64,000 nt of DNA, from NCBI GenBank assembly GCA_028717245.1, contig JAQUOD010000004.1:65508-129507 (forward strand), written 5' to 3'. The notes beneath the pieces were generated by a model. The model saw only the letters and a list, made by a program, of their open reading frames with translations, was not told the origin of the DNA and searched no databases. How positions within the stretch are numbered: position 1 is the first letter of the stretch; every line of letters starts with the position of its first letter. The stretch is from Candidatus Omnitrophota bacterium (GTDB lineage Bacteria; Omnitrophota; Gorgyraeia; Gygaellales; Profunditerraquicolaceae). The position numbers and the translations under genes were made by a program. Below are positions 5,989 to 61,175 of the stretch, one piece after another.

Positions 5989-6009
5989 CCTTAACCTATT
6001 ACCTCCAAC

Positions 6010-6044
6010 AACATTAAAACATTAAAACATTTAAACTTTCAAAC
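6010..6044. repeat. AAAACATT / AAACTTTC word repeat overlapping the cooF stop, upstream of the FAD oxidoreductase gene.
   Basis: aacattaaaacattaaaacatttaaactttcaaac. Confidence 0.75.
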
Positions 6045-14004: not shown

Positions 14005-14739
14005 TTAATTATCTTTTAATAAATCCGGCCTTGATTTTTTGGTAATTTTTAAGGCTTGTTTTTTTCTCCACTGCGCTATTTTTTTATGATTACCTGATAA
14101 AAGGATTGCCGGGACCTTCATGCCTTGATAATTGGCAGGCCTGGTATACTGTGGATACTCCAATAGATTACCCGTAAATGACTCAAAATTCAAGGAATTT
14201 TTATCCCCCAATACACCCGGGATAAGGCGCACTAAGGCATCCACTAAAACCATAGCCGGCAATTCCCCGCCGGTCAAGACATAGTCGCCGATAGAGATCT
14301 CTTCATCCACAAGAGAAAGCCGCACCCTTTCGTCTATGCCTTCATAATGCCCGCAGATTAAAATGAGGTGCTTACATTTGGCCAACTTTTGCGCTACTCT
14401 TTGATTTAATTTCTCACCCCGCGGGCATAATAAAATAACTTTTGTTTTTTTCGTATCGCGTATCGCGTATCGCGTATCGCGTATCTTCGATGCACGACGA
14501 AAAATATCATTCACTGCCCGGAATATGGGCTCTGGGTTTATCACCATGCCTGAGCCGCCGCCAAAAGGCCGGTCATCGACTTTCCTGTGTTTATCCAAAG
14601 TATAATCCCGCAGGTTATGGATGTAAATCTTGACCTTACCTTTATTTTGCGCCCGCTTGAGAATAGATTCATTCAGCACGGGTTCGAACATCTTGGGGAA
14701 TATGGTGAGGATATCTATACGCATCGTATAAGGTATCAA
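14005..14739 (-). CDS. trmD: tRNA (guanine37-N1)-methyltransferase. Carries an in-frame heptamer tandem repeat insertion.
   Basis: [17 protein letters not shown]..., typical TrmD. The (CGTATCG)x4.5 array at 14452-14485 encodes [12 protein letters not shown] in a variable loop. Confidence 0.9.
14452..14485. repeat. Heptamer tandem array (CGTATCG)n inside the trmD coding sequence, in frame.
   Basis: cgtatcgcgtatcgcgtatcgcgtatcgcgtatc, read directly. Confidence 0.85.
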
Positions 14740-14803
14740 AGTATCAAGGTGTCAAGGTATCAAAGTTTTTTCTTTGACACAATGACACCTGACACTATGA
14801 CAC

Positions 14804-14805
<2 letters not shown>
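14732..14805. repeat. Junction palindrome (GTATCAAR)n-T6-(TGACACN)n between tgt and trmD.
   Basis: ggtatcaaagtatcaaggtgtcaaggtatcaaag tttttt ctttgacacaatgacacctgacactatgacact. Same word family as 33893-33960. Confidence 0.75.
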
Positions 14806-15973
<1,168 letters not shown>

Positions 15974-19894: not shown

Positions 19895-20068
19895 TTTACG
19901 GGTCCTGTCTTGGCTTGTTTTCTCGCAGGGACGCTCGTTTTGCCCAGCGTGCAAAACTTCGCTCGACTTTCGGCCTCGCTCTCACCGATAATTAATAGCG
20001 GGTGAACCGTGCCCGCTCGGCCTGCAAACGCCCTGCTCGAAACCAAGCCAATCCATCCGTAAAATACA
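19895..20068. mobile_element. GC-rich X element, MITE-like with imperfect TIRs TTTTACGG...CCGTAAAA. It is about 96% identical to 53500-53665 over roughly 145 nt.
   Basis: Direct comparison of the two loci. A terminal fragment recurs at 19005-19030. Confidence 0.6.
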
Positions 20069-20082
20069 TAACAACCCTCTAT

Positions 20083-33892: not shown

Positions 33893-33960
33893 TTACTTTG
33901 TGTCAAAGTATCAATGTGTCAGAGTGTCAAAGAAAAAACTTTGATACCTTGACACTTTGA
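33893..33960. repeat. Junction palindrome (GTGTCAAAG / GTATCAAT)n-A6-(CTTTGATAC)n between the GH57 gene and uppS.
   Basis: gtgtcaaagtatcaatgtgtcagagtgtcaaag aaaaaa ctttgataccttgacactttgatact. Confidence 0.75.
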
Positions 33961-33964
33961 TACT

Positions 33965-37681: not shown

Positions 37682-39040
<1,359 letters not shown>

Positions 39041-44810: not shown

Positions 44811-44916
44811 AGAGTTCCTTTCGTTATTGAGTTACTTGAGTTATTGAGTTACTTGAGTTTGCTAGACCAACTGCAAAACTCAAAAGACCCTATAAACTCA
44901 ACAAACTCTAAAAACT
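44811..44916. repeat. Long imperfect palindrome of (TATTGAGTT / TACTTGAGTT) words and their complements at the clpP-aminotransferase junction.
   Basis: cgttattgagttacttgagttattgagttacttgagttt...aaaactcaaaagaccctataaactcaacaaactc. Confidence 0.8.
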
Positions 44917-46403: not shown

Positions 46404-46464
46404 TTATCCCTCAACATTCAAACATTCAAAACATTTTAACATTCAAACATTCAAACATTAGCTG
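46404..46464. repeat. ACATTCAAAC-family repeat at the lptB-tig junction.
   Basis: caacattcaaacattcaaaacattttaacattcaaacattcaaacatta. Confidence 0.8.
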
Positions 46465-47187
46465 CTACATCCTAAACTTCTCGCCTAAATAAATTTCGCG
46501 CGCCTGGGGGTTATTAATCAGTTCCTCGGCAGTCCCGGAAATAAGGATCCTGCCTTCGGCGATCAAATACGCCCTGTCAGTAATAGAAAGGGTCTCTCTG
46601 ACGTTATGGTCGGTGAGTAAAATTCCCAGGCCCTTTTCCTTAAGTTCTTTAATTATCTCCTGCGCCTCATTCACGACGATAGGGTCTATCCCGGAAAACG
46701 GCTCATCCAAAAGGATAAAAGAGGGGTTAGTCACCAAAGCCCGGGTAATCTCCAGGCGCCTTCGTTCTCCGCCGGATAAGGTGTAAGCCCTGTTCTTAGC
46801 CAGATGCGCGATGTTTAATTCTTCAAGCAAGCCGGCCAACCGATGCCTTCTCTCTGTCTTACTGATAGGCAAGGTCTCTAAGATGGCCATAATATTTTCT
46901 TCCACGGTAAGCTTCCTGAAAATTGACGGCTCCTGAGAAAGATAACCTATGCCGAAACGCGCGCGCTCATGGATAGGTAAATTGGTGATATTGTAATTAT
47001 CAAATACGATAGAGCCGCTATTGGGAGAAATAACGCCTACCACCATATAAAAGGTAGTGGTCTTGCCTGCGCCGTTAGGCCCTAAAAGCCCCACTATCTC
47101 CCCGCGCTTGACATTTAAATCTACGCCCTTAACCACCTGCCTGGCGTCGTAAGATTTAGTCAGGCCTTTAATTTCCAAGAGATGCAT
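46465..47187 (-). CDS. lptB: LPS export ABC transporter ATP-binding protein.
   Basis: GPNGAGKTTTF Walker A, LSGGERRRLEI signature. Confidence 0.9.
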   Translation of the reverse strand: MHLLEIKGLTKSYDARQVVKGVDLNVKRGEIVGLLGPNGAGKTTTFYMVVGVISPNSGSIVFDNYNITNLPIHERARFGIGYLSQEPSIFRKLTVEENIMAILETLPISKTERRHRLAGLLEELNIAHLAKNRAYTLSGGERRRLEITRALVTNPSFILLDEPFSGIDPIVVNEAQEIIKELKEKGLGILLTDHNVRETLSITDRAYLIAEGRILISGTAEELINNPQAREIYLGEKFRM

Positions 47188-48115
47188 TCATACCCTCCGC
47201 GGAATAAATAACTAATCTCGGTTTGCCTGAAAGAGTAATCTTCCTGTCTAACGCGGTGTAAGTCGCTTCGTCGCTGTAGGAAATGTTTTCGCCCTGGCTG
47301 ATCTTTACGTTGCCGCGCGCCACAATCTTGTCTATCTTGCTGCCCATAGCGGCCATGCCTGCCTGGCCTGCGGAGATATCTTTGCCAGCGTCTGTGCCGC
47401 CGAAATAAACATCCATCTTATCGCTCTCAATCAGGGCATCCTGGGTATCTACCTTTACATTATTGCTGAAGGTAGCGATATTCTTCCCGTAATCTATCTC
47501 CAGGGGGCCATCGCAGGTAATGACAATCTTTTTTTGCCCGGCCGGCTCCTGGGCCTTAGCGTCAACGCTGGGATTGATATTTACCGTAACATCTTTTTCC
47601 AGGCTCACCTTTTTTAAGTCCGGTTCGCCGCTTGCGCCGCTGGCAGTGGTCACCATATTGCCCCTTTCTATGCTCACCATATCCTTGGTACTCACCAGGC
47701 GGTTTTTCCTGTCCCAATCCAGAGAATCCGTAGTCAGTTTTGCGCCGGTAGAAGTAGTGATGATGACATTCTCTTCCAGATGCACCTTGCCGTCTGCCTT
47801 ATCAAAATCGCCCTTGTCAGCGGTAAGCCTGATATCCTCTTTTTCGCCGTAAAGGTTACCGACTACGCTCTTGAGTTTTACTATGTTGTCAAATATATCC
47901 GCGGATTTTCCCGAAAGGTCCCAGCTGCGCTTGCCTTTTTCGCCAAAGCTGGCCAGGGAAAACTCATTAATCTGCTGGTCAGAGCCCGGAGCATTTTCTT
48001 CCTGGGCAACTAAGCTGTAAGCTGTAAGCTGTAAGCTGTAAGTAAAGATAAAAAAGAAAAATAAAATAATCTTAAGAATACCTGATTTATGACACCTGAC
48101 TTGTGACTCTGCCAT
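47168..48115 (-). CDS. lptA: LptA/OstA-family LPS transport protein. The (GTAAGCT)n repeat encodes part of the signal-peptide region.
   Basis: N-terminal hydrophobic segment, OstA-like beta-rich body. Position matches kdsC-lptA-lptB synteny. Confidence 0.55.
   Translation of the reverse strand: MAESQVRCHKSGILKIILFFFFIFTYSLQLTAYSLVAQEENAPGSDQQINEFSLASFGEKGKRSWDLSGKSADIFDNIVKLKSVVGNLYGEKEDIRLTADKGDFDKADGKVHLEENVIITTSTGAKLTTDSLDWDRKNRLVSTKDMVSIERGNMVTTASGASGEPDLKKVSLEKDVTVNINPSVDAKAQEPAGQKKIVITCDGPLEIDYGKNIATFSNNVKVDTQDALIESDKMDVYFGGTDAGKDISAGQAGMAAMGSKIDKIVARGNVKISQGENISYSDEATYTALDRKITLSGKPRLVIYSAEGMNASLGN
47992..48022. repeat. (AAGCTGT)x4.5 heptamer array inside the lptA 5' coding region, encoding QLTAYSL.
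   Basis: aagctgtaagctgtaagctgtaagctgtaag. Confidence 0.85.
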
Positions 48116-52437: not shown

Positions 52438-52490
52438 TTTTTACCCGCTAACATTTAAACTTTCAAACTTTCAAACATTTTAACAGACAC
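52438..52490. repeat. ACATTTAAAC / TTTCAAAC leader repeat at the DHS-like-hldA junction.
   Basis: ctaacatttaaactttcaaactttcaaacattttaac. Confidence 0.75.
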
Positions 52491-53438: not shown

Positions 53439-53499
53439 AGAGACTTATAATTTTAGCATAAATCCTGGTTAAATCAACTATATTTAGCTATTGAGCGTC

Positions 53500-53665
53500 T
53501 GTCTTGTCTTGTTTCTCGCAGGGACGCTCGTTTTGCCCAGCGTGCAAAACTTCGCTCGACTTTCGGCCTCGCTCTCACCGATAATTTAATAGCGGGTGAA
53601 CCGTGCCCGCTCGGCCTGCAAACGCCCTGCTCGAAATCAAGCCAAGCCATCCGCTAAATATACAT
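53500..53665. mobile_element. X element copy, near-identical to 19895-20068.
   Basis: About 145 nt at roughly 96% identity with 19908-20050. Confidence 0.6.
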
Positions 53666-53944: not shown

Positions 53945-56008
53945 TTATTCTTTCAAAATTTCATCCGTGGCGTTCACCACATCATCTACGCTAATCGCCT
54001 TTAAACAGGCGAATCCCTTAAGGCAATTATGGGCCAGGCATTCTATACAACCTGCGTCTTTATGCAAAAATTTATCCTTCTTACCCAACGGCCCCCAACG
54101 CAAAGGGCTTAAACCCTTCTGATTCCTTCCAAAAATAGAAATCACCGGCGTGCCTAATGCCGAGGCAATATGCACCGGGCCTGAATCATTGGAAATAAAT
54201 AAGCGGCACCTCTTTAAAATACTGGCCAACTGGCTGACCGAGGCCTTACCTGCCAGATTGATTGCGGGATGGCTAATTTTTTTAATGACCTCCTGGGCTA
54301 TTTTTATATCTTTCGGCCCGGCTACCACTAAAACCTTAAACCCATATTTTGCGATTAATCTATCCGCAACTTCAGAAAATCTTTCATTCGGCCAGACCTT
54401 AGACGGACAACTCGCCGCCGGATGAATGGCTAATAATTGATCCGTCTTTTTTATTCCCTCCTGCCGGAGCAATTCTTCTGCCCAATTTTCCGATTCCGGC
54501 TTAAGGGGCATCAACAGGTTTTTATCTTTCGGCTCAATACCTAAATACCTGACTAAATCCAGGATGTATTCCGATTCGTGCTTTTGGCCTGATTGTTTAG
54601 TGTGTTTTATCCTATCCGTAAGCAAGAACCCTAATTTACGGTTATAGCCGATCCTTTGGGGTATGCCGGCAATAAAAGCTATCAGATGTACGCGATTAGC
54701 AGGATGAAGGACTATGGCTAAATCAAACTTTTTTTTCTTTAAATTCAAGGCAAACCTTAAAGACCTATGCCAGCTCTTATGTTTTATGTCCTTATCATAA
54801 AGGATTACTTCGTCTATATAGGGATTACCCTCTAATATATCTTTGGCATAAGGATTAACCATCATTGCTATATAAGCTGAGGGATAATTATCCCTCAGCG
54901 CCTTGATAGCCGGCGTAGATAAAAGTACGTCTCCGATTCTATCCGTGCGCACAATTAATATGCGTTTATATTTTTGACTTGTGACTTGTGACTTGTGACT
55001 TGTGACTAATAGATTCCTCACCTGCCGCAATACGTCTTCTACTTTTATCAATTGCAGGCATTTCAATGTGCCGAAGCGGCATTGGGCCTTTTCGCAGGGC
55101 CGGCAAAAGATATCTTTCTTTACTACCGCGGAAATTTCCGACCAGGGCCCATACTTGGCTTCGTTTGTGGGCCCGAAAATAGCCACAATAGGCAGATTAA
55201 GATAACTTGCCAAATGCAATACTGCGCTGTCATTAGTAATAACGGCCTTCGCTTTCTTCAACAGGCAAGCCAACTGCCCCAGCGTCGTCTTGGCGCTTAA
55301 ATCCAGGACGGAACATCGGCAATTTTCAGTTATGTATCTGGTAATATAGGCATCGTCTTTATCACCTACCAGGGCCACTTTTACCCCAAATTCCTTTATC
55401 AAATGAGGAATCAATTCTGTGAATTTTTCCTTATCCCACCTTTTAGTATGGCTCCTTGCCCCCGGGGCAATTATAATTATTTTATCCTGTGCAGTGATAT
55501 TATTTTTCCTCAATATATTTTTAATGTACTCTTCATCTTCGGGTTTAATATATAAAGAATCCCCTTTTATTTTACCTGACACCTGACACCTTCCGCCAAA
55601 ATGCTTGGCGGACCCGCCAATATTTTTGGCGGGGACACCTGACACCTGACGCAAATGCTTGTCCTTCATATGCCTGATCTGCCCGGGCATAGACAAAGAC
55701 GGCAGCGCCTCTTTCCTTCCCGTAAGCGCTACCCCCAGCAAGCTGTTACGTAAATCCACGACCAAGTCGAAATTAATTTTTTTTAGTTCTTTAAATAAGC
55801 TAATCTTCTCCCTCAGAGAAGAGTGCTTCTCGTAAATAAACAGCTTTTGGATGCGGGGGTTATCCTGAAATATCTCCTTTGGCCGCGGGCCAGAGAGGAC
55901 CGTAATTTTAGCCTGGGGGAACTCTTGTAATAAGGTATCTAAAACCGGCAGGGTCAATATGCAGTCGCCGATGTTGCTTAAGGTAATAAAAAGAATCTTA
56001 TTTATCAT
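53945..56008 (-). CDS. Tandem fusion of two GT9 (heptosyltransferase-family) domains in a single 687-aa ORF. A repeat-derived linker (VTSHKSQVTSQ) joins the two domains. The N-terminal domain also carries a palindromic in-frame insertion.
   Basis: Two separate heptosyltransferase N-terminal signatures (MINKILFITLSNIGDCILTLPVL and KRILIVRTDRIGDVLLSTPAIKAL) with no intervening stop codon. Confidence 0.7.
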   Translation of the reverse strand: MINKILFITLSNIGDCILTLPVLDTLLQEFPQAKITVLSGPRPKEIFQDNPRIQKLFIYEKHSSLREKISLFKELKKINFDLVVDLRNSLLGVALTGRKEALPSLSMPGQIRHMKDKHLRQVSGVPAKNIGGSAKHFGGRCQVSGKIKGDSLYIKPEDEEYIKNILRKNNITAQDKIIIIAPGARSHTKRWDKEKFTELIPHLIKEFGVKVALVGDKDDAYITRYITENCRCSVLDLSAKTTLGQLACLLKKAKAVITNDSAVLHLASYLNLPIVAIFGPTNEAKYGPWSEISAVVKKDIFCRPCEKAQCRFGTLKCLQLIKVEDVLRQVRNLLVTSHKSQVTSQKYKRILIVRTDRIGDVLLSTPAIKALRDNYPSAYIAMMVNPYAKDILEGNPYIDEVILYDKDIKHKSWHRSLRFALNLKKKKFDLAIVLHPANRVHLIAFIAGIPQRIGYNRKLGFLLTDRIKHTKQSGQKHESEYILDLVRYLGIEPKDKNLLMPLKPESENWAEELLRQEGIKKTDQLLAIHPAASCPSKVWPNERFSEVADRLIAKYGFKVLVVAGPKDIKIAQEVIKKISHPAINLAGKASVSQLASILKRCRLFISNDSGPVHIASALGTPVISIFGRNQKGLSPLRWGPLGKKDKFLHKDAGCIECLAHNCLKGFACLKAISVDDVVNATDEILKE
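54975..55008. repeat. (GACTTGT)x4.5 heptamer array forming the in-frame linker between the two GT9 domains.
   Basis: gacttgtgacttgtgacttgtgacttgtgact. Confidence 0.85.
55574..55652. repeat. MITE-like in-frame insertion inside the GT9 fusion gene. (TGACACC) direct repeats flank two GC hairpins, CCGCCAA-aatgc-TTGGCGG and CCCGCCAA-tattt-TTGGCGGG.
   Basis: cctgacacctgacaccttccgccaaaatgcttggcggacccgccaatatttttggcggggacacctgacacctgacgc. It encodes roughly 26 extra residues without a stop. Confidence 0.7.
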
Positions 56009-56038: not shown

Positions 56039-57067
56039 TTAGGGCTTAAGGCCTTTTACTTTCTCTATTGCCTCTTCGGGTGTTATTGCCTTCATACAAC
56101 GGTTATCTTGACAGCGCACATTATAACAGGGAATCTTGCAGCCTATGTCTTTAAATATAACAGTCGCGTTATATAAAGGAAACGGCCCGGTTATTTCAGG
56201 CGAGGTCGGCCCGAATAAGGCGATAATTCTTTTTGTGCCGACGCTATTAGCAATATGCAAAGGCCCGGTATCCGCGCTAATAAATAAATCCAGTCTCTTA
56301 AATAGTGCGCCCAATTGTTTAAGATTTAATGCGCCGCTTGCTATAACAGGCTTCTCTTGCATCAATGCCTTAATACTTGAAGCCAGGGATAAATCCTGGG
56401 GGGCGCCGGTAATTATGACACTAGCGCCTAATTCGGCGATTAACCTATCAGCTAACCTCGCCCAGTATTCTTTGGGCCAGCGCTTGAGCAGCCAATTCGC
56501 GCCCGGATTGATAGCTATCAAAAATCCGCCCTTACCAAGGGAATGTTTATCTAAAAATTCTTCTACGAATTTGCTGTCTTCATCGGAGACGAAAAACTCC
56601 GTGTACCTGTCCTCTACCGTTAAACCGGATTTTTCAATGAGGCTGAGGTAATAATCTATACGGTGTAAGGTATCTTTTTCAGGCGCTATAATTTTTTTAC
56701 TCAGGAGAAAACCGCGTTTTTTCGTATAGTAGCCTAATATATAACCGATACCTGCCAAGCGGCAGATTAGGGCACGGGTAAATGAACGGTGCAATAAAAA
56801 TGCCGTATCGAATCTCTTCTCTTTGAGTATCTTCACAAAATTAAATTGCGCCAGGACCCCCCTGTGCCTGTCCTTCTCGTCGAAAATTATGATTTCATCC
56901 AGATGGGGGTTACCTTTTAAGACAGGGTAACAGCGGCTGGGGATTACACAGGCGATAAAACTATCCGGGAAGTTCCTGCGGATATTCCTGATGGTAGCCG
57001 TAGAAAACAAAACATCGCCTACCCAGTTTACGTTAAAAATCAATATCCTTCTGTATTTATCCTTCAT
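56039..57067 (-). CDS. GT9-family heptosyltransferase (WaaC/WaaF-like).
   Basis: RILIFNVNWVGDVLFSTATIRNIRRNFP N-terminus. 342 aa. Confidence 0.8.
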   Translation of the reverse strand: MKDKYRRILIFNVNWVGDVLFSTATIRNIRRNFPDSFIACVIPSRCYPVLKGNPHLDEIIIFDEKDRHRGVLAQFNFVKILKEKRFDTAFLLHRSFTRALICRLAGIGYILGYYTKKRGFLLSKKIIAPEKDTLHRIDYYLSLIEKSGLTVEDRYTEFFVSDEDSKFVEEFLDKHSLGKGGFLIAINPGANWLLKRWPKEYWARLADRLIAELGASVIITGAPQDLSLASSIKALMQEKPVIASGALNLKQLGALFKRLDLFISADTGPLHIANSVGTKRIIALFGPTSPEITGPFPLYNATVIFKDIGCKIPCYNVRCQDNRCMKAITPEEAIEKVKGLKP

Positions 57068-58943: not shown

Positions 58944-59078
58944 ATTTTAAAATATGGAGCTAAATGTCCAATTATCCAATTGCCAAATCCCAATTAATTC
59001 CCAATTATTCAATTACCAATTGTAGAATTGGACATTGGTAATTTATTTGACATTGGAAATTGGTAATTGGCCATTACG
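58944..59078. repeat. Long imperfect palindrome of (CCAATTA)-type words and their complements (TAATTGG) at the GT4 junction.
   Basis: gtccaattatccaattgccaaatcccaattaattcccaattattcaattaccaattg tag aattggacattggtaatttatttgacattggaaattggtaattgg. Confidence 0.8.
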
Positions 59079-61175
59079 CTATTCTCTTTTTAATAACTTA
59101 TCAATCGCCTCCAATACCTCTTGCGGCTTTATCAACCCCATGCATTTTCCGGTTTTACACTTTGATTTATAACAAGGCTCGCAAGGCAGGTCTTTTTTTA
59201 TCACTATGCATTTTCCCGACGGCGGCAGATGGCGCTTGGGGTCAGTCGGGCCGAAGAGAGCGACAAAGGGGACGCCTTGGCTGGCAGCCACATGCAACGG
59301 CGCTGAATCGAAAGAAATAAAGGCCGCGCATTTTTTTATTAAACAGGCCAGCTGATTAACCGTAGTCTTAGCGCAGGCATTGATTATTTTTATATTCTTT
59401 AAGGCATTCATGAGCATATTGGCCTGGTTTAAATCTTTTTCCGTGCCCGTAACCACCACCCGCATATCCCGGCGTGCTAACTCTACGCAGAGTTTTATTA
59501 TATGCTCCAACGGCCAGTTTTTAGTTATCCACCTGGAGCTGGCGCTGATATTTATGCCGATAAGCAGCTGCTTGGCGCTTAACCACTGGGATTTCAGGAA
59601 TTCATCCACATAATCTTCATCCTGCGCCGTTGGCCACAGCTCCAACCGCGGATCTTCTAAATTTATATCCAGCATCTTTAAAATCCGGAATTGATGGGTT
59701 ACGGGGTCTATCGCGGGCTTTTCATCTTTTATGCGGTGGTTCAGCAGGAAACCGAATTTTTTATTGTCATACCCGTAACGATTTAAGGCCAGGCTTAAAA
59801 AAGCTAAAAGGTGGCTCTTACGGTTATTCTGCAAATCAATGATGATGTCAAAATTTTTCTTTCGCAAGTGCGCGGATAATTTCCACAGGCCGGCTATGCC
59901 CTTACCTTTATTTTTAAAATCGCTTAAGAGAAGCTCATCTATATACGGACAGTTTAAAAGCGCATCCTTTGATTCCCCGCCCACAAGAAAGCTGATTTTA
60001 TATCCGGAGGAAAACTTCTCTCTTATTGCCCTTAAGGCCGCGGTAGAGAGAATAATATCGCCTAAGGAGCTGAATTTAATAATCAGGATTTTGTAACTGC
60101 TTAAGGCCTCCTGATAAACATCTAACGTCTTCTTCACCATTAACCCGATATTATAAAATTCTTTTACCTTTTGATAGGCATTCTCAGCCAGGGTGCGGCT
60201 TAATTCTTTATCTTTAAATATACTGATGGCAGCGTCAGCAATGGCTTGGGGGTCAGCCGGGGGAACAAGCAGCCCGGTTTTATGGTTATCGATAATATCG
60301 ATTACGCCGCCTACGCGGCTGGCGATTACCGGAACGCCGCAGGCCTGCGCTTCTATAATCACCCTGCCGAATGCCTCGTGGGCCGTAGTAGGCAATACCA
60401 GAAGGTCCAGATTTGCCATTATTGCCGGGATATCCCTTTGGGTACCTAAAAATTGGGTGCAATGCCAAAGCCCCAGCCTCTTGATTAATACCTGTACCTG
60501 TTCTTTATAGGCCTCTTTTGAGGCAGGCGCCTCGCCTATAATCCATATTTTTAAACGCGGGATAACGCGGGCGGCCCTAGCCATGGCCTTAATAAAATGC
60601 AAATGGCCTTTTATGGGAGTGATCCTGCCTATTATACCTATATTAAATTCTTCTCTTCTTTTTTTATCCGGGCTCACATACCTGAACCTCTCCAGATCTA
60701 CGCTACGCGGTATTAATCTTAAACGCTCATGGGGCGTGTCAAAATCCTCAATCATATGCCGGGCAATCACATTACTCAAGACAATAACTCTTTTGCTCCA
60801 GCCCATGACATAACTAAAGGGGTGCTTTTTATAATAACCGTGGCAGGTAGTAATAAATACCCTATTGGTACGGCGGCAGGCAAAATAGGCAATCCAGGCA
60901 GGGACGCGCGAACGCGCATGCACGATATCGATCTGTTCCCTGCGGATAATCTCAGCTAACCTGGAAACCATCTTTACCATGGTGAATAAGGATTTCTTAT
61001 GCACGGGTAACTGATAATGTGTGGCGCCGAAGGACTCAAGCGTCCTGACCAGCTCTCCGCCGTTTGAAACCACCACTATCTTATGGCCCATCCCGACGAG
61101 TGCCTTCGCCAGGTCAAGCGTGCCGGTCTCTACTCCTCCCACATTAAGTTCGGGTAAAATCTGAAGGATATTCAT
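59079..61175 (-). CDS. Fusion of an N-terminal GT4 glycosyltransferase and a C-terminal GT9 heptosyltransferase-like domain (698 aa).
   Basis: MNILQILPELNVGGVETGTLDLAKAL, then a GT4 E-x7-E region, then SYKILIIKFSSLGDIILSTAALRAIREKF as the GT9 start. Confidence 0.7.
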   Translation of the reverse strand: MNILQILPELNVGGVETGTLDLAKALVGMGHKIVVVSNGGELVRTLESFGATHYQLPVHKKSLFTMVKMVSRLAEIIRREQIDIVHARSRVPAWIAYFACRRTNRVFITTCHGYYKKHPFSYVMGWSKRVIVLSNVIARHMIEDFDTPHERLRLIPRSVDLERFRYVSPDKKRREEFNIGIIGRITPIKGHLHFIKAMARAARVIPRLKIWIIGEAPASKEAYKEQVQVLIKRLGLWHCTQFLGTQRDIPAIMANLDLLVLPTTAHEAFGRVIIEAQACGVPVIASRVGGVIDIIDNHKTGLLVPPADPQAIADAAISIFKDKELSRTLAENAYQKVKEFYNIGLMVKKTLDVYQEALSSYKILIIKFSSLGDIILSTAALRAIREKFSSGYKISFLVGGESKDALLNCPYIDELLLSDFKNKGKGIAGLWKLSAHLRKKNFDIIIDLQNNRKSHLLAFLSLALNRYGYDNKKFGFLLNHRIKDEKPAIDPVTHQFRILKMLDINLEDPRLELWPTAQDEDYVDEFLKSQWLSAKQLLIGINISASSRWITKNWPLEHIIKLCVELARRDMRVVVTGTEKDLNQANMLMNALKNIKIINACAKTTVNQLACLIKKCAAFISFDSAPLHVAASQGVPFVALFGPTDPKRHLPPSGKCIVIKKDLPCEPCYKSKCKTGKCMGLIKPQEVLEAIDKLLKRE

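Follow-up and report, generated by a model that had tools for sequence, protein, structure and literature searches.

Heptamer arrays and small hairpins in frame within a two-unit GT9 glycosyltransferase gene of Omnitrophota

The Rickettsia palindromic elements (RPEs) are small palindromes of ~150 bp, comprising ten families, that are found in frame in unrelated functional genes, where they encode conserved peptides at positions compatible with the protein fold (PMC10969869). A similar architecture is seen in the gene considered here, an open reading frame (ORF) of 687 codons at positions 53945-56008, minus strand, of a 64,000-nt stretch of contig JAQUOD010000004.1 from a Candidatus Omnitrophota bacterium (hereafter the window). 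The product, annotated at NCBI as lipopolysaccharide (LPS) heptosyltransferase II, consists of two successive GT9 units and will be called di-GT9; short repeats lie in frame at two of its sites, a loop of the first unit and the linker between the units. The favored explanation, which is considered probable, is that di-GT9 is an ancient fusion in which the loop and linker, both disordered and permissive, hold members of a phylum-wide family of tiny repeat elements. The likeness to RPEs is one of architecture, as the Omnitrophota elements are also in frame in unrelated functional genes (di-GT9, Tgt, IspG, and a GT4 gene at a related locus, L008). Unlike the RPEs, however, the Omnitrophota units are only 21 or 42 nt, their arrays are ~33 nt, they are associated with heptamers, and their host phylum is another one.

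Elhai et al. 2008 (Genome Res) reportedly described cyanobacterial heptamer repeats (STRR) that exist in few copies at many loci, and inside which 21-27-nt palindromic mini-elements (SDR) are reportedly inserted. The di-GT9 loop, with palindromic units inside a heptamer array, resembles this arrangement. The differences are the phylum, a diverse and fast-changing vocabulary of words, the in-frame location within conserved enzymes, and the presence/absence polymorphism of 21- and 42-nt units.

Direct repeats of TAACTGA are present in Beggiatoaceae, Cyanobacteria and Bacteroidetes in 2-6 copies, mostly in intergenic DNA and often beside start codons, with occasional copies in ORFs that are stop-free in orientation and encode the periphery of mostly hypothetical proteins (MacGregor 2015, PMC4679880). 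Heptamers are the commonest class of long simple-sequence repeat in bacteria, as that paper relates from earlier work (Mrazek 2007, cited in PMC4679880). The Omnitrophota repeats share with the TAACTGA and STRR types the presence of short 7-nt arrays at many loci and a higher density in intergenic than in other coding DNA, but many words are used instead of one dominant word, and the arrays are found inside the conserved Tgt, TrmD, IspG, LpxK and di-GT9 proteins. Finally, slippage of simple-sequence repeats underlies phase variation of glycosyltransferase genes for lipooligosaccharide or LPS in Neisseria, Haemophilus and Campylobacter (PMC12721329, PMC8262952). For Omnitrophota, literature searches brought up nothing relevant on repeats of this kind or on GT9 fusions. 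As a gene, the fused enzyme is unremarkable and carries an NCBI annotation already; what is of interest is the presence of 7-nt arrays and 21/42-nt hairpins in frame inside conserved enzymes.

Two GT9 units and two repeat-bearing sites

A first-pass annotation, made from the sequence alone, had proposed that two GT9 units are joined in one ORF, and this is borne out by profile searches. PF01075, the Pfam GT9 family, matches the 687-residue protein in two stretches, and each half, when run separately, passes the 134.6-bit cut-off of the NCBIfam heptosyltransferase II model TIGR02195 (140 bits for the first half and 166.7 bits for the second). The GT9 N-terminal motif opens both halves, as ILFITLSNIGD at residues 5-15 and as ILIVRTDRIGD at residues 350-360. 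An NCBI protein from a Candidatus Omnitrophica metagenome-assembled genome (MAG) is 100% identical to the window protein (P0001).

Structural modelling, which had been suggested as a check, also agrees. The AlphaFold2 model, built on 29 homologues and with a mean predicted local distance difference test (pLDDT) score of 81.7, contains two GT-B units of two Rossmann-like subdomains each. The first unit (residues 1-336; 55001-56008, minus strand) is delimited by TIGR02195, the model, and alignments to 3TOV and 1PSW, and the second (residues 347-687; 53948-54970, minus strand) by TIGR02195, the model and its structure matches. For both units the best solved matches in Foldseek are 3TOV, WaaF (1PSW) and WaaC, with target TM-scores of 0.74-0.87 for 3TOV, 1PSW, 6DFE and 2GT1 against the di-GT9 model. 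Thus, each half is similar to WaaC (2H1H/6DFE), WaaF (1PSW) and the Veillonella GT9 protein 3TOV in its GT-B fold and in its Asp/Lys/Asp positions, the difference being that di-GT9 has two units per chain. The residues in question, D15, K189 and D260 in the first half and D360, K537 and D608 in the second, are invariant in the alignment of 29 homologues, and are presumably the equivalents of Asp13, Lys192 and Asp261 of WaaC. Every invariant column of this alignment is retained in the window protein, including the GD, K-R-W and NDS positions of both halves, and both units look catalytically intact, as judged from sequence and model. As part of the same joint explanation, the two units of di-GT9 are likely to be WaaF-like GT9 glycosyltransferases fused in tandem and encoded in an LPS-core cluster, and this gene context would fit a role in transfer of heptose from ADP-heptose to the 3-deoxy-D-manno-octulosonic acid (Kdo)/heptose core.

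The inter-unit linker (54975-55007, minus strand) is a perfect array of GTCACAA on the coding strand, for which Tandem Repeats Finder (TRF) reports a period of 7, 4.7 copies and 100% matches. The frame is open and free of stop codons, and reads VTSHKSQVTSQ at residues 335-345, in agreement with the annotation; an imperfect final unit, GTCAAAA, carries the array on to 54972. Perfect arrays of at least three copies and a period of at least 5 number zero in 673 kb of block-shuffled control sequence, so the observation of arrays at the linker and loop is real.

In the loop, which follows the HMKDKHL helix of the first unit, the whole insert spans 55574-55650 on the minus strand and is composite. 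A 5' half-array of GGTGTCA identified by TRF (55634-55650) is followed by two tandem 21-nt hairpin units with GC stems, CCCGCCAAAAATATTGGCGGG and TCCGCCAAGCATTTTGGCGGA, that encode residues 126-139 (55592-55633), and then by a 3' half-array of the same word, likewise identified by TRF (55574-55591). The hairpin units are in register and in frame, are identical at 16 of 21 positions, and fold at -12.1 kcal/mol (55592-55612) and -13.3 kcal/mol (55613-55633); a 96-nt stretch containing both folds at -34.7 kcal/mol, with a z-score of -3.8. When the 42-nt pair is removed, the flanks rejoin in register as a perfect 35-nt (GGTGTCA)x5.0 array, and the flanking direct repeats are therefore halves of a single interrupted array, rather than target-site duplications. 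The GGTGTCA word of the loop is the word of the linker array at one related locus (L014).

Two GC hairpins between GGTGTCA repeats had been recognized in the first-pass annotation, and that description stands with the refinement just given. The accompanying proposal, that the insert resembles a miniature inverted-repeat transposable element (MITE), does not. Terminal inverted repeats were not found at the window hairpins, where the arms are direct heptamer repeats, and no target-site duplication was found in the window insert or at the ends of three similar compound elements that lie within 8 kb at L008. Lacking both features, the elements are not classical MITEs. The 64-kb window holds one related hairpin (29213-29231, 2 mismatches). 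Removal of the insert at the level of mRNA or protein was also considered and judged unlikely, as only stop-free, frame-preserving states are seen in 155 loci.

The loop and the linker are the only hypervariable segments in the alignment of 29 proteins, and they coincide with the segments of the AlphaFold2 model where pLDDT is below 50 (residues 116-147 and 337-344, respectively). The loop site belongs to the N-terminal Rossmann subdomain of the first unit, where it follows the HMKDRHL helix. Among linker peptides, P, Q, T, N and Y are overrepresented, and L, I, M and W are underrepresented. These properties bear on the suggestion that the gene is decaying, with its ORF open by chance, or that the repeats are assembly artefacts. 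Poor modelling of residues 95-155 of the first unit, which also fail to align with solved GT9 structures, would suit decay, but all invariant residues are kept, the full-length frame is open in 155 loci from independent assemblies, and all relatives vary at the same two sites. As for artefacts, a sequencing read is longer than a 33-nt array, and MAGs assembled independently have such arrays too. Decay or artefact is therefore barely credible, and of the two options offered in the first-pass annotation, a tolerated loop insertion or a decaying gene, the former is supported, since the invariant columns are kept and the model is unstructured and of lowest confidence at the insert and linker.

A further feature of the GT9 units is an invariant four-cysteine motif at the end of each (CRPCEKAQCRFGTLKC, CIECLAHNCLKGFAC and CKIPCYNVRCQDNRC), located at residues 302-317 and 654-668 of di-GT9 and at the C-terminus of a single-unit GT9 paralogue encoded immediately upstream (56039-57067, minus strand). 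The paralogue, which also passes TIGR02195 and keeps its position in relatives, is outside the fusion and is mentioned as context. The motif is modelled with pLDDT below 50 and distinguishes each di-GT9 unit from 3TOV and 1PSW, which have no counterpart in the aligned stretches. By analogy with the iron-containing heptosyltransferase TibC, it may be a metal-binding finger.

Age of the fusion

The stretch between the two units had been read as a former intergenic spacer in which a word-repeat fused two adjacent genes, by loss of the stop codon, or now maintains their fusion. This possibility has some appeal. The array sits exactly where a stop codon, a spacer and a start codon would be expected, in other parts of the window arrays of another word class closely precede start codons, and distant lineages possess single-unit proteins that resemble the N- or C-terminal half and have their own methionine. 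Comparison with relatives, however, points the other way. Full-length homologues of di-GT9 number more than 120 (665-716 residues, 63-72% identity), every named one being from Omnitrophota, and at all 80 species-level genome loci a single ORF without stop codons covers both halves. When fusion was assessed by tblastn at 160 loci from Omnitrophota genomes and metagenomes, 156 were testable, the remaining four being truncated contigs or mismatched pairs, and the halves are fused in 155 of the 156.

The lone true split, at L132, also fails to supply the expected spacer. Synteny at this locus is as in the fused loci, but the two genes overlap by ATGA, and both spacer and repeat are absent. The C-terminal half of L132 is 72% identical to that of the window, as in fused relatives, and nests among fused sequences in a crude neighbour-joining (NJ) tree, whereas the N-terminal half is 48% identical, a pattern that points to secondary fission or replacement. 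Two other candidates for natural split variants were set aside, P0156 because it ends at the end of its contig, and P0124 because its contig is full of broken genes and the break is at residue 370, not at the linker.

In addition, ~19 species form a clade in which the units are fused, the linker (LLKGK...YRRI) is non-repetitive, and the loop, of 27 residues, is conserved. Relatives fused without repeats are what the first-pass annotation had itself named as evidence that would refute its reading. Clustering at 50% identity yields ~25 fused representatives along with many single-unit N-like or C-like proteins with their own start, these belonging to more distant lineages. With 155 of 156 loci fused, and with a repeat-free clade among them, the fusion is older than the present repeat and independent of it; by these sequence comparisons it is old and widely conserved in Omnitrophota.

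The present array also appears to be of recent date. Outside the two variable sites, four alleles are 95-100% identical in nucleotide sequence across most windows of 150 nt, but have different linkers, consisting of (CCGAACA)4, (CCGAGTA/TCGAGTA)5, (GCACGCT)4, or non-repetitive sequence. Such swapping of linker words among near-identical strains indicates that the current array is much younger than the fusion.

Domain fusions are also encountered among the neighboring genes. The neighborhood of di-GT9 is a cluster for LPS, Kdo, lipid A and LPS transport, with genes for KdsA, KdsB, a SIS/CBS isomerase, LptC-LptA, LpxK, GT4 enzymes, and a polysaccharide deacetylase, and nearly all gene-like long ORFs throughout the window (1-64000) are on the minus strand. 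Within this cluster, and on that strand, are a GT4-GT9 fusion (59079-61175, 698 residues), a fusion of the lipid A acyltransferase LpxL with an ELM1-like domain (61179-63116, 645 residues), and an LptC-LptA fusion (47168-48115, 315 residues). Domain fusion thus seems common in this lineage. A repeat array is absent from the GT4-GT9 and LpxL-ELM1-like junctions, and such array-free fusions, together with the near-universal fusion of di-GT9, the ATGA overlap of L132 and the youth of the linker words, make it very unlikely that the repeat created or maintains the fusion.

Turnover of words and hairpins, and the reading frame

The exchange of repeat words is particularly clear for L016 and L088, where the flanks are nearly identical and the linker array is 42 nt in both. 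CCGAGTA, which is a variant unit at the 3' boundary of the L016 array, has replaced all units in L088, and, judged from the two sequences, this is concerted evolution without change in length. In other cases, the number of modules differs. Proteins that are 99-100% identical contain zero, one or two copies of a 42-nt hairpin-containing unit in a CAAGCCA/CCAGCCA linker array, other near-identical alleles have 42-nt indels in the loop or linker, and the 21-nt hairpin tgcctcgccggcaggcaggtc is present in or absent from the loop of near-identical alleles. At L086, the array has decayed. Every length step between near-identical alleles is 21 nt or a multiple of it, 21 being the smallest number divisible by both 7 and 3, and out-of-frame alleles at the linker number 0 in 155 loci.

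This pattern is pertinent to the idea that di-GT9 is a phase-variable contingency locus, where slippage of the array would shift the frame, switch off the second unit, and vary the LPS core. The gene encodes an LPS glycosyltransferase, the array is perfect, and its unit is not divisible by three, as in the known phase-variable genes, so that a one-unit change would truncate the product. In simulation, changes of -2, -1, +1 or +2 units lead to a stop codon 3-9 codons past the linker array and to a cleanly truncated first unit, whereas a change of +3 units keeps the frame. The tract, however, is short at 4.7 copies, the linker is in frame at all 155 related loci, and the variation that is observed between near-identical alleles (steps of 21 or 42 nt, or replacement of words at constant length) preserves the frame. 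Broken genes in the protein clusters break elsewhere or at contig ends, and neither an in-frame ATG nor a conserved start is available to the second unit. The same arrays are also found in the housekeeping genes tgt, trmD and ispG, for which on/off switching is implausible. Phase variation is accordingly regarded as quite unlikely.

Words and modules also recur at separate sites. At L008, a compound element of 52 nt occurs three times within 8 kb, with sharp ends and ~90% or more identity between copies. In this element, a 21-nt hairpin, CCTGCC...GGCAGG, is flanked on both sides by GTTCAGR words in direct orientation, and the three coding contexts of the copies are a GT4 gene, where the element is in frame, the di-GT9 loop, and the di-GT9 linker. 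Pairs of arrays have the identical heptamer word in 4.7% of comparisons within a genome, 0.7% between genomes, and 0.1% at random. The window itself has at least 12 different heptamer words, rather than one or a few fixed words per genome, and some of them recur; for instance, CTTACAG is found at three sites (32351, 48011 and 63150). Local slippage was thus rejected as the whole origin of the arrays, because identical words and a compound element are found at separate sites.

The distribution of arrays was surveyed with TRF (period 5-12) in the 160 related loci, amounting to 1.02 Mb. Of the 148 arrays found, linkers (7.8 kb in all) hold 38, loops (6.5 kb) hold 13, and the other 1.0 Mb holds 97, corresponding to 4.9, 2.0 and 0.1 arrays per kb, respectively. 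The density is ~0.5-0.8 arrays per kb in intergenic DNA and 0.05 in the rest of the coding DNA, making the linker denser in arrays than even the spacers. Period 7 dominates, words of 8 or 10 nt being used in some arrays, and the typical array is ~33 nt, near-constant for periods of 7 or 8 (median of 34 nt for linker arrays). Linker words in relatives include ATTACCG, CCGAACA, GCACCGA, GGTGTCA, CATCCAT, CCAACTG, GACCCAC and GACCAAA, and loop words include CTCTACT, AAATCCA and the 10-mer GGTTACCAGA. Approximately two-thirds of linkers have no detectable array.

A density in linkers ~6-fold above that of intergenic DNA could indicate that the arrays and hairpins are functional and positively selected, as protein-binding sites, as sites of translational pausing or processing, or as sequences written from a template by a dedicated enzyme. 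The near-constant ~33-nt length for period 7 or 8, arrays that are perfect amid divergent surroundings, and a vocabulary common within and between genomes and across genes (such as VTSHxSxVTSQ in the di-GT9 linker and in Tgt) would also be consistent with function, as would (AATGTTNR)n arrays that adjoin start codons in the manner reported for TAACTGA (PMC4679880). Set against this, no word is conserved at the site, ~2/3 of linkers and a whole clade lack an array, arrays decay in some strains (as at L086), and a candidate protein or template was not found. The bias of in-ORF words towards A/C-rich, hydrophilic-encoding sequences is explained by tolerance at the level of the peptide. Selected function for the arrays is therefore improbable. 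There is a small chance that an active, sequence-directed process installs and homogenizes ~33-nt arrays of shared vocabulary and inserts 21-nt hairpins at many loci, with the di-GT9 linker as a preferred and maintained target. The linker array could then act at the level of nucleic acid, as a binding or pause site, or be a source of rapid variation in an LPS enzyme, and such a process would amount to a genome-wide repeat system of a novel type.

Under the favored explanation, an ancient fusion with two permissive sites, the element family would consist of ~33-nt arrays of 7-nt (sometimes 8- or 10-nt) words together with 21/42-nt GC-stem hairpin modules inside or beside them. Arrays would arise and be homogenized by slippage, or by out-of-register template switching and conversion, and words and hairpin modules would additionally be copied between sites. 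Within ORFs, purifying selection would purge changes in length that are not multiples of 3, with the consequence that ORF arrays would be locked in and outlast intergenic ones; such locking in, together with shared ancestry, would give the loop and linker the appearance of hotspots. Because the elements share one ORF with the enzyme, they should be translated as hydrophilic, unstructured peptide. The repeats would thus be passengers in a pre-existing flexible linker, and neither the origin of that linker nor a sign of decay.

A number of points weigh against this explanation. Independent events do not explain all of the enrichment at the two sites, part of which is due to common descent of the loci, and the frame-lock account of the hotspots is one that we infer. 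No transposase, terminal inverted repeat or target-site duplication was found that would account for the spread of the elements. A perfect 4.7-copy array implies recent homogenization, and simple slippage needs frame-breaking intermediates, none of which were observed. Translation of the linker as a peptide is read from the open frame, and the NJ and UPGMA (unweighted pair group method with arithmetic mean) trees by which the ancestral state was judged are crude. Lastly, the closest relative is only 72% identical, and when Joint Genome Institute (JGI) metagenomes were searched for linker length variants of the same species, a pattern made of the flanks and a gap of variable size had 0 matches.

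Elements in other genes and spacers

In-frame arrays are not confined to di-GT9. In the window, heptamer arrays lie in frame in TrmD (14452-14485), in IspG/GcpE (29232-29263), in the LptC part of LptC-LptA (48011-48042, word CTTACAG), and twice in LpxK (63150-63187, word CTTACAG, and 63823-63855, word ATTRCCG). The IspG/GcpE array is adjoined by the hairpin at 29213-29231, CGGCCAATTTTATTGGCCG, which has a GC stem like the di-GT9 loop hairpins, and the ATTRCCG word of LpxK is the di-GT9 linker word at L067 and L001. In Tgt, the queuine tRNA-ribosyltransferase (ORF 14804-15949, minus strand), two adjacent arrays, (AACACCA)x6 and (CGGTTAT)x3.4, encode 22 residues (15368-15435). In Omnitrophota generally, the one hypervariable loop of Tgt follows WAKRSKA; it is missing in some species and encoded by repeats or hairpins in others, with peptides that include VTSHQSPVTSQ and CLSGRQ, which also occur in di-GT9 proteins. 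Given in-frame arrays in other genes of the window, and in Tgt across Omnitrophota, the di-GT9 case is one instance of a phylum-wide phenomenon.

Repeats of other types were noted in the spacers. Arrays of the 8-nt word AATGTTNR, as read on the coding strand, are located 0-20 nt upstream of five start codons (6008-6036, 15940-15966, 29011-29062, 46413-46459 and 52450-52479), where a ribosome-binding site would be expected, a placement similar to that of TAACTGA arrays ahead of start codons in Beggiatoaceae. Pairs of word arrays in inverted orientation, such as (GTRTCAAR)n facing (YTTGAYAC)n, create long periodic palindromes between consecutive genes (14726-14804, 33899-33964, 38953-39037, 44812-44916 and 58968-59070), with the same word families at different spacers, and may be terminators or processing sites.

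The spacer downstream of di-GT9 contains a conserved non-coding element of ~170 nt (53499-53665) that is found a second time in the window (19905-20069, minus strand) at 95.8% identity. At 70-83% identity, it also adjoins di-GT9, in either orientation, in at least 20 other Omnitrophota loci (L066, L149, L117, L043, L014 and others). An RNAalifold consensus of 18 copies has 36 base pairs, 14 of them with compensatory changes, and Rfam has no match for the element or for the spacer. The element is a candidate for a new structured RNA or a small mobile element.

In practical terms, the repeat sites inflate the apparent divergence of the proteins that contain them, and mark permissive insertion points in GT9 enzymes. 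More generally, repeats are replaced between near-identical strains, with length and frame kept, in conserved enzymes across an uncultured phylum. Omnitrophota thus offer a natural system for the spread of tiny repeat elements without a recognizable transposase, for the way in which selection on the reading frame shapes and preserves repeats, with 21 as the least common multiple of 3 and 7, and for the creation and renewal of disordered linkers and loops in proteins.

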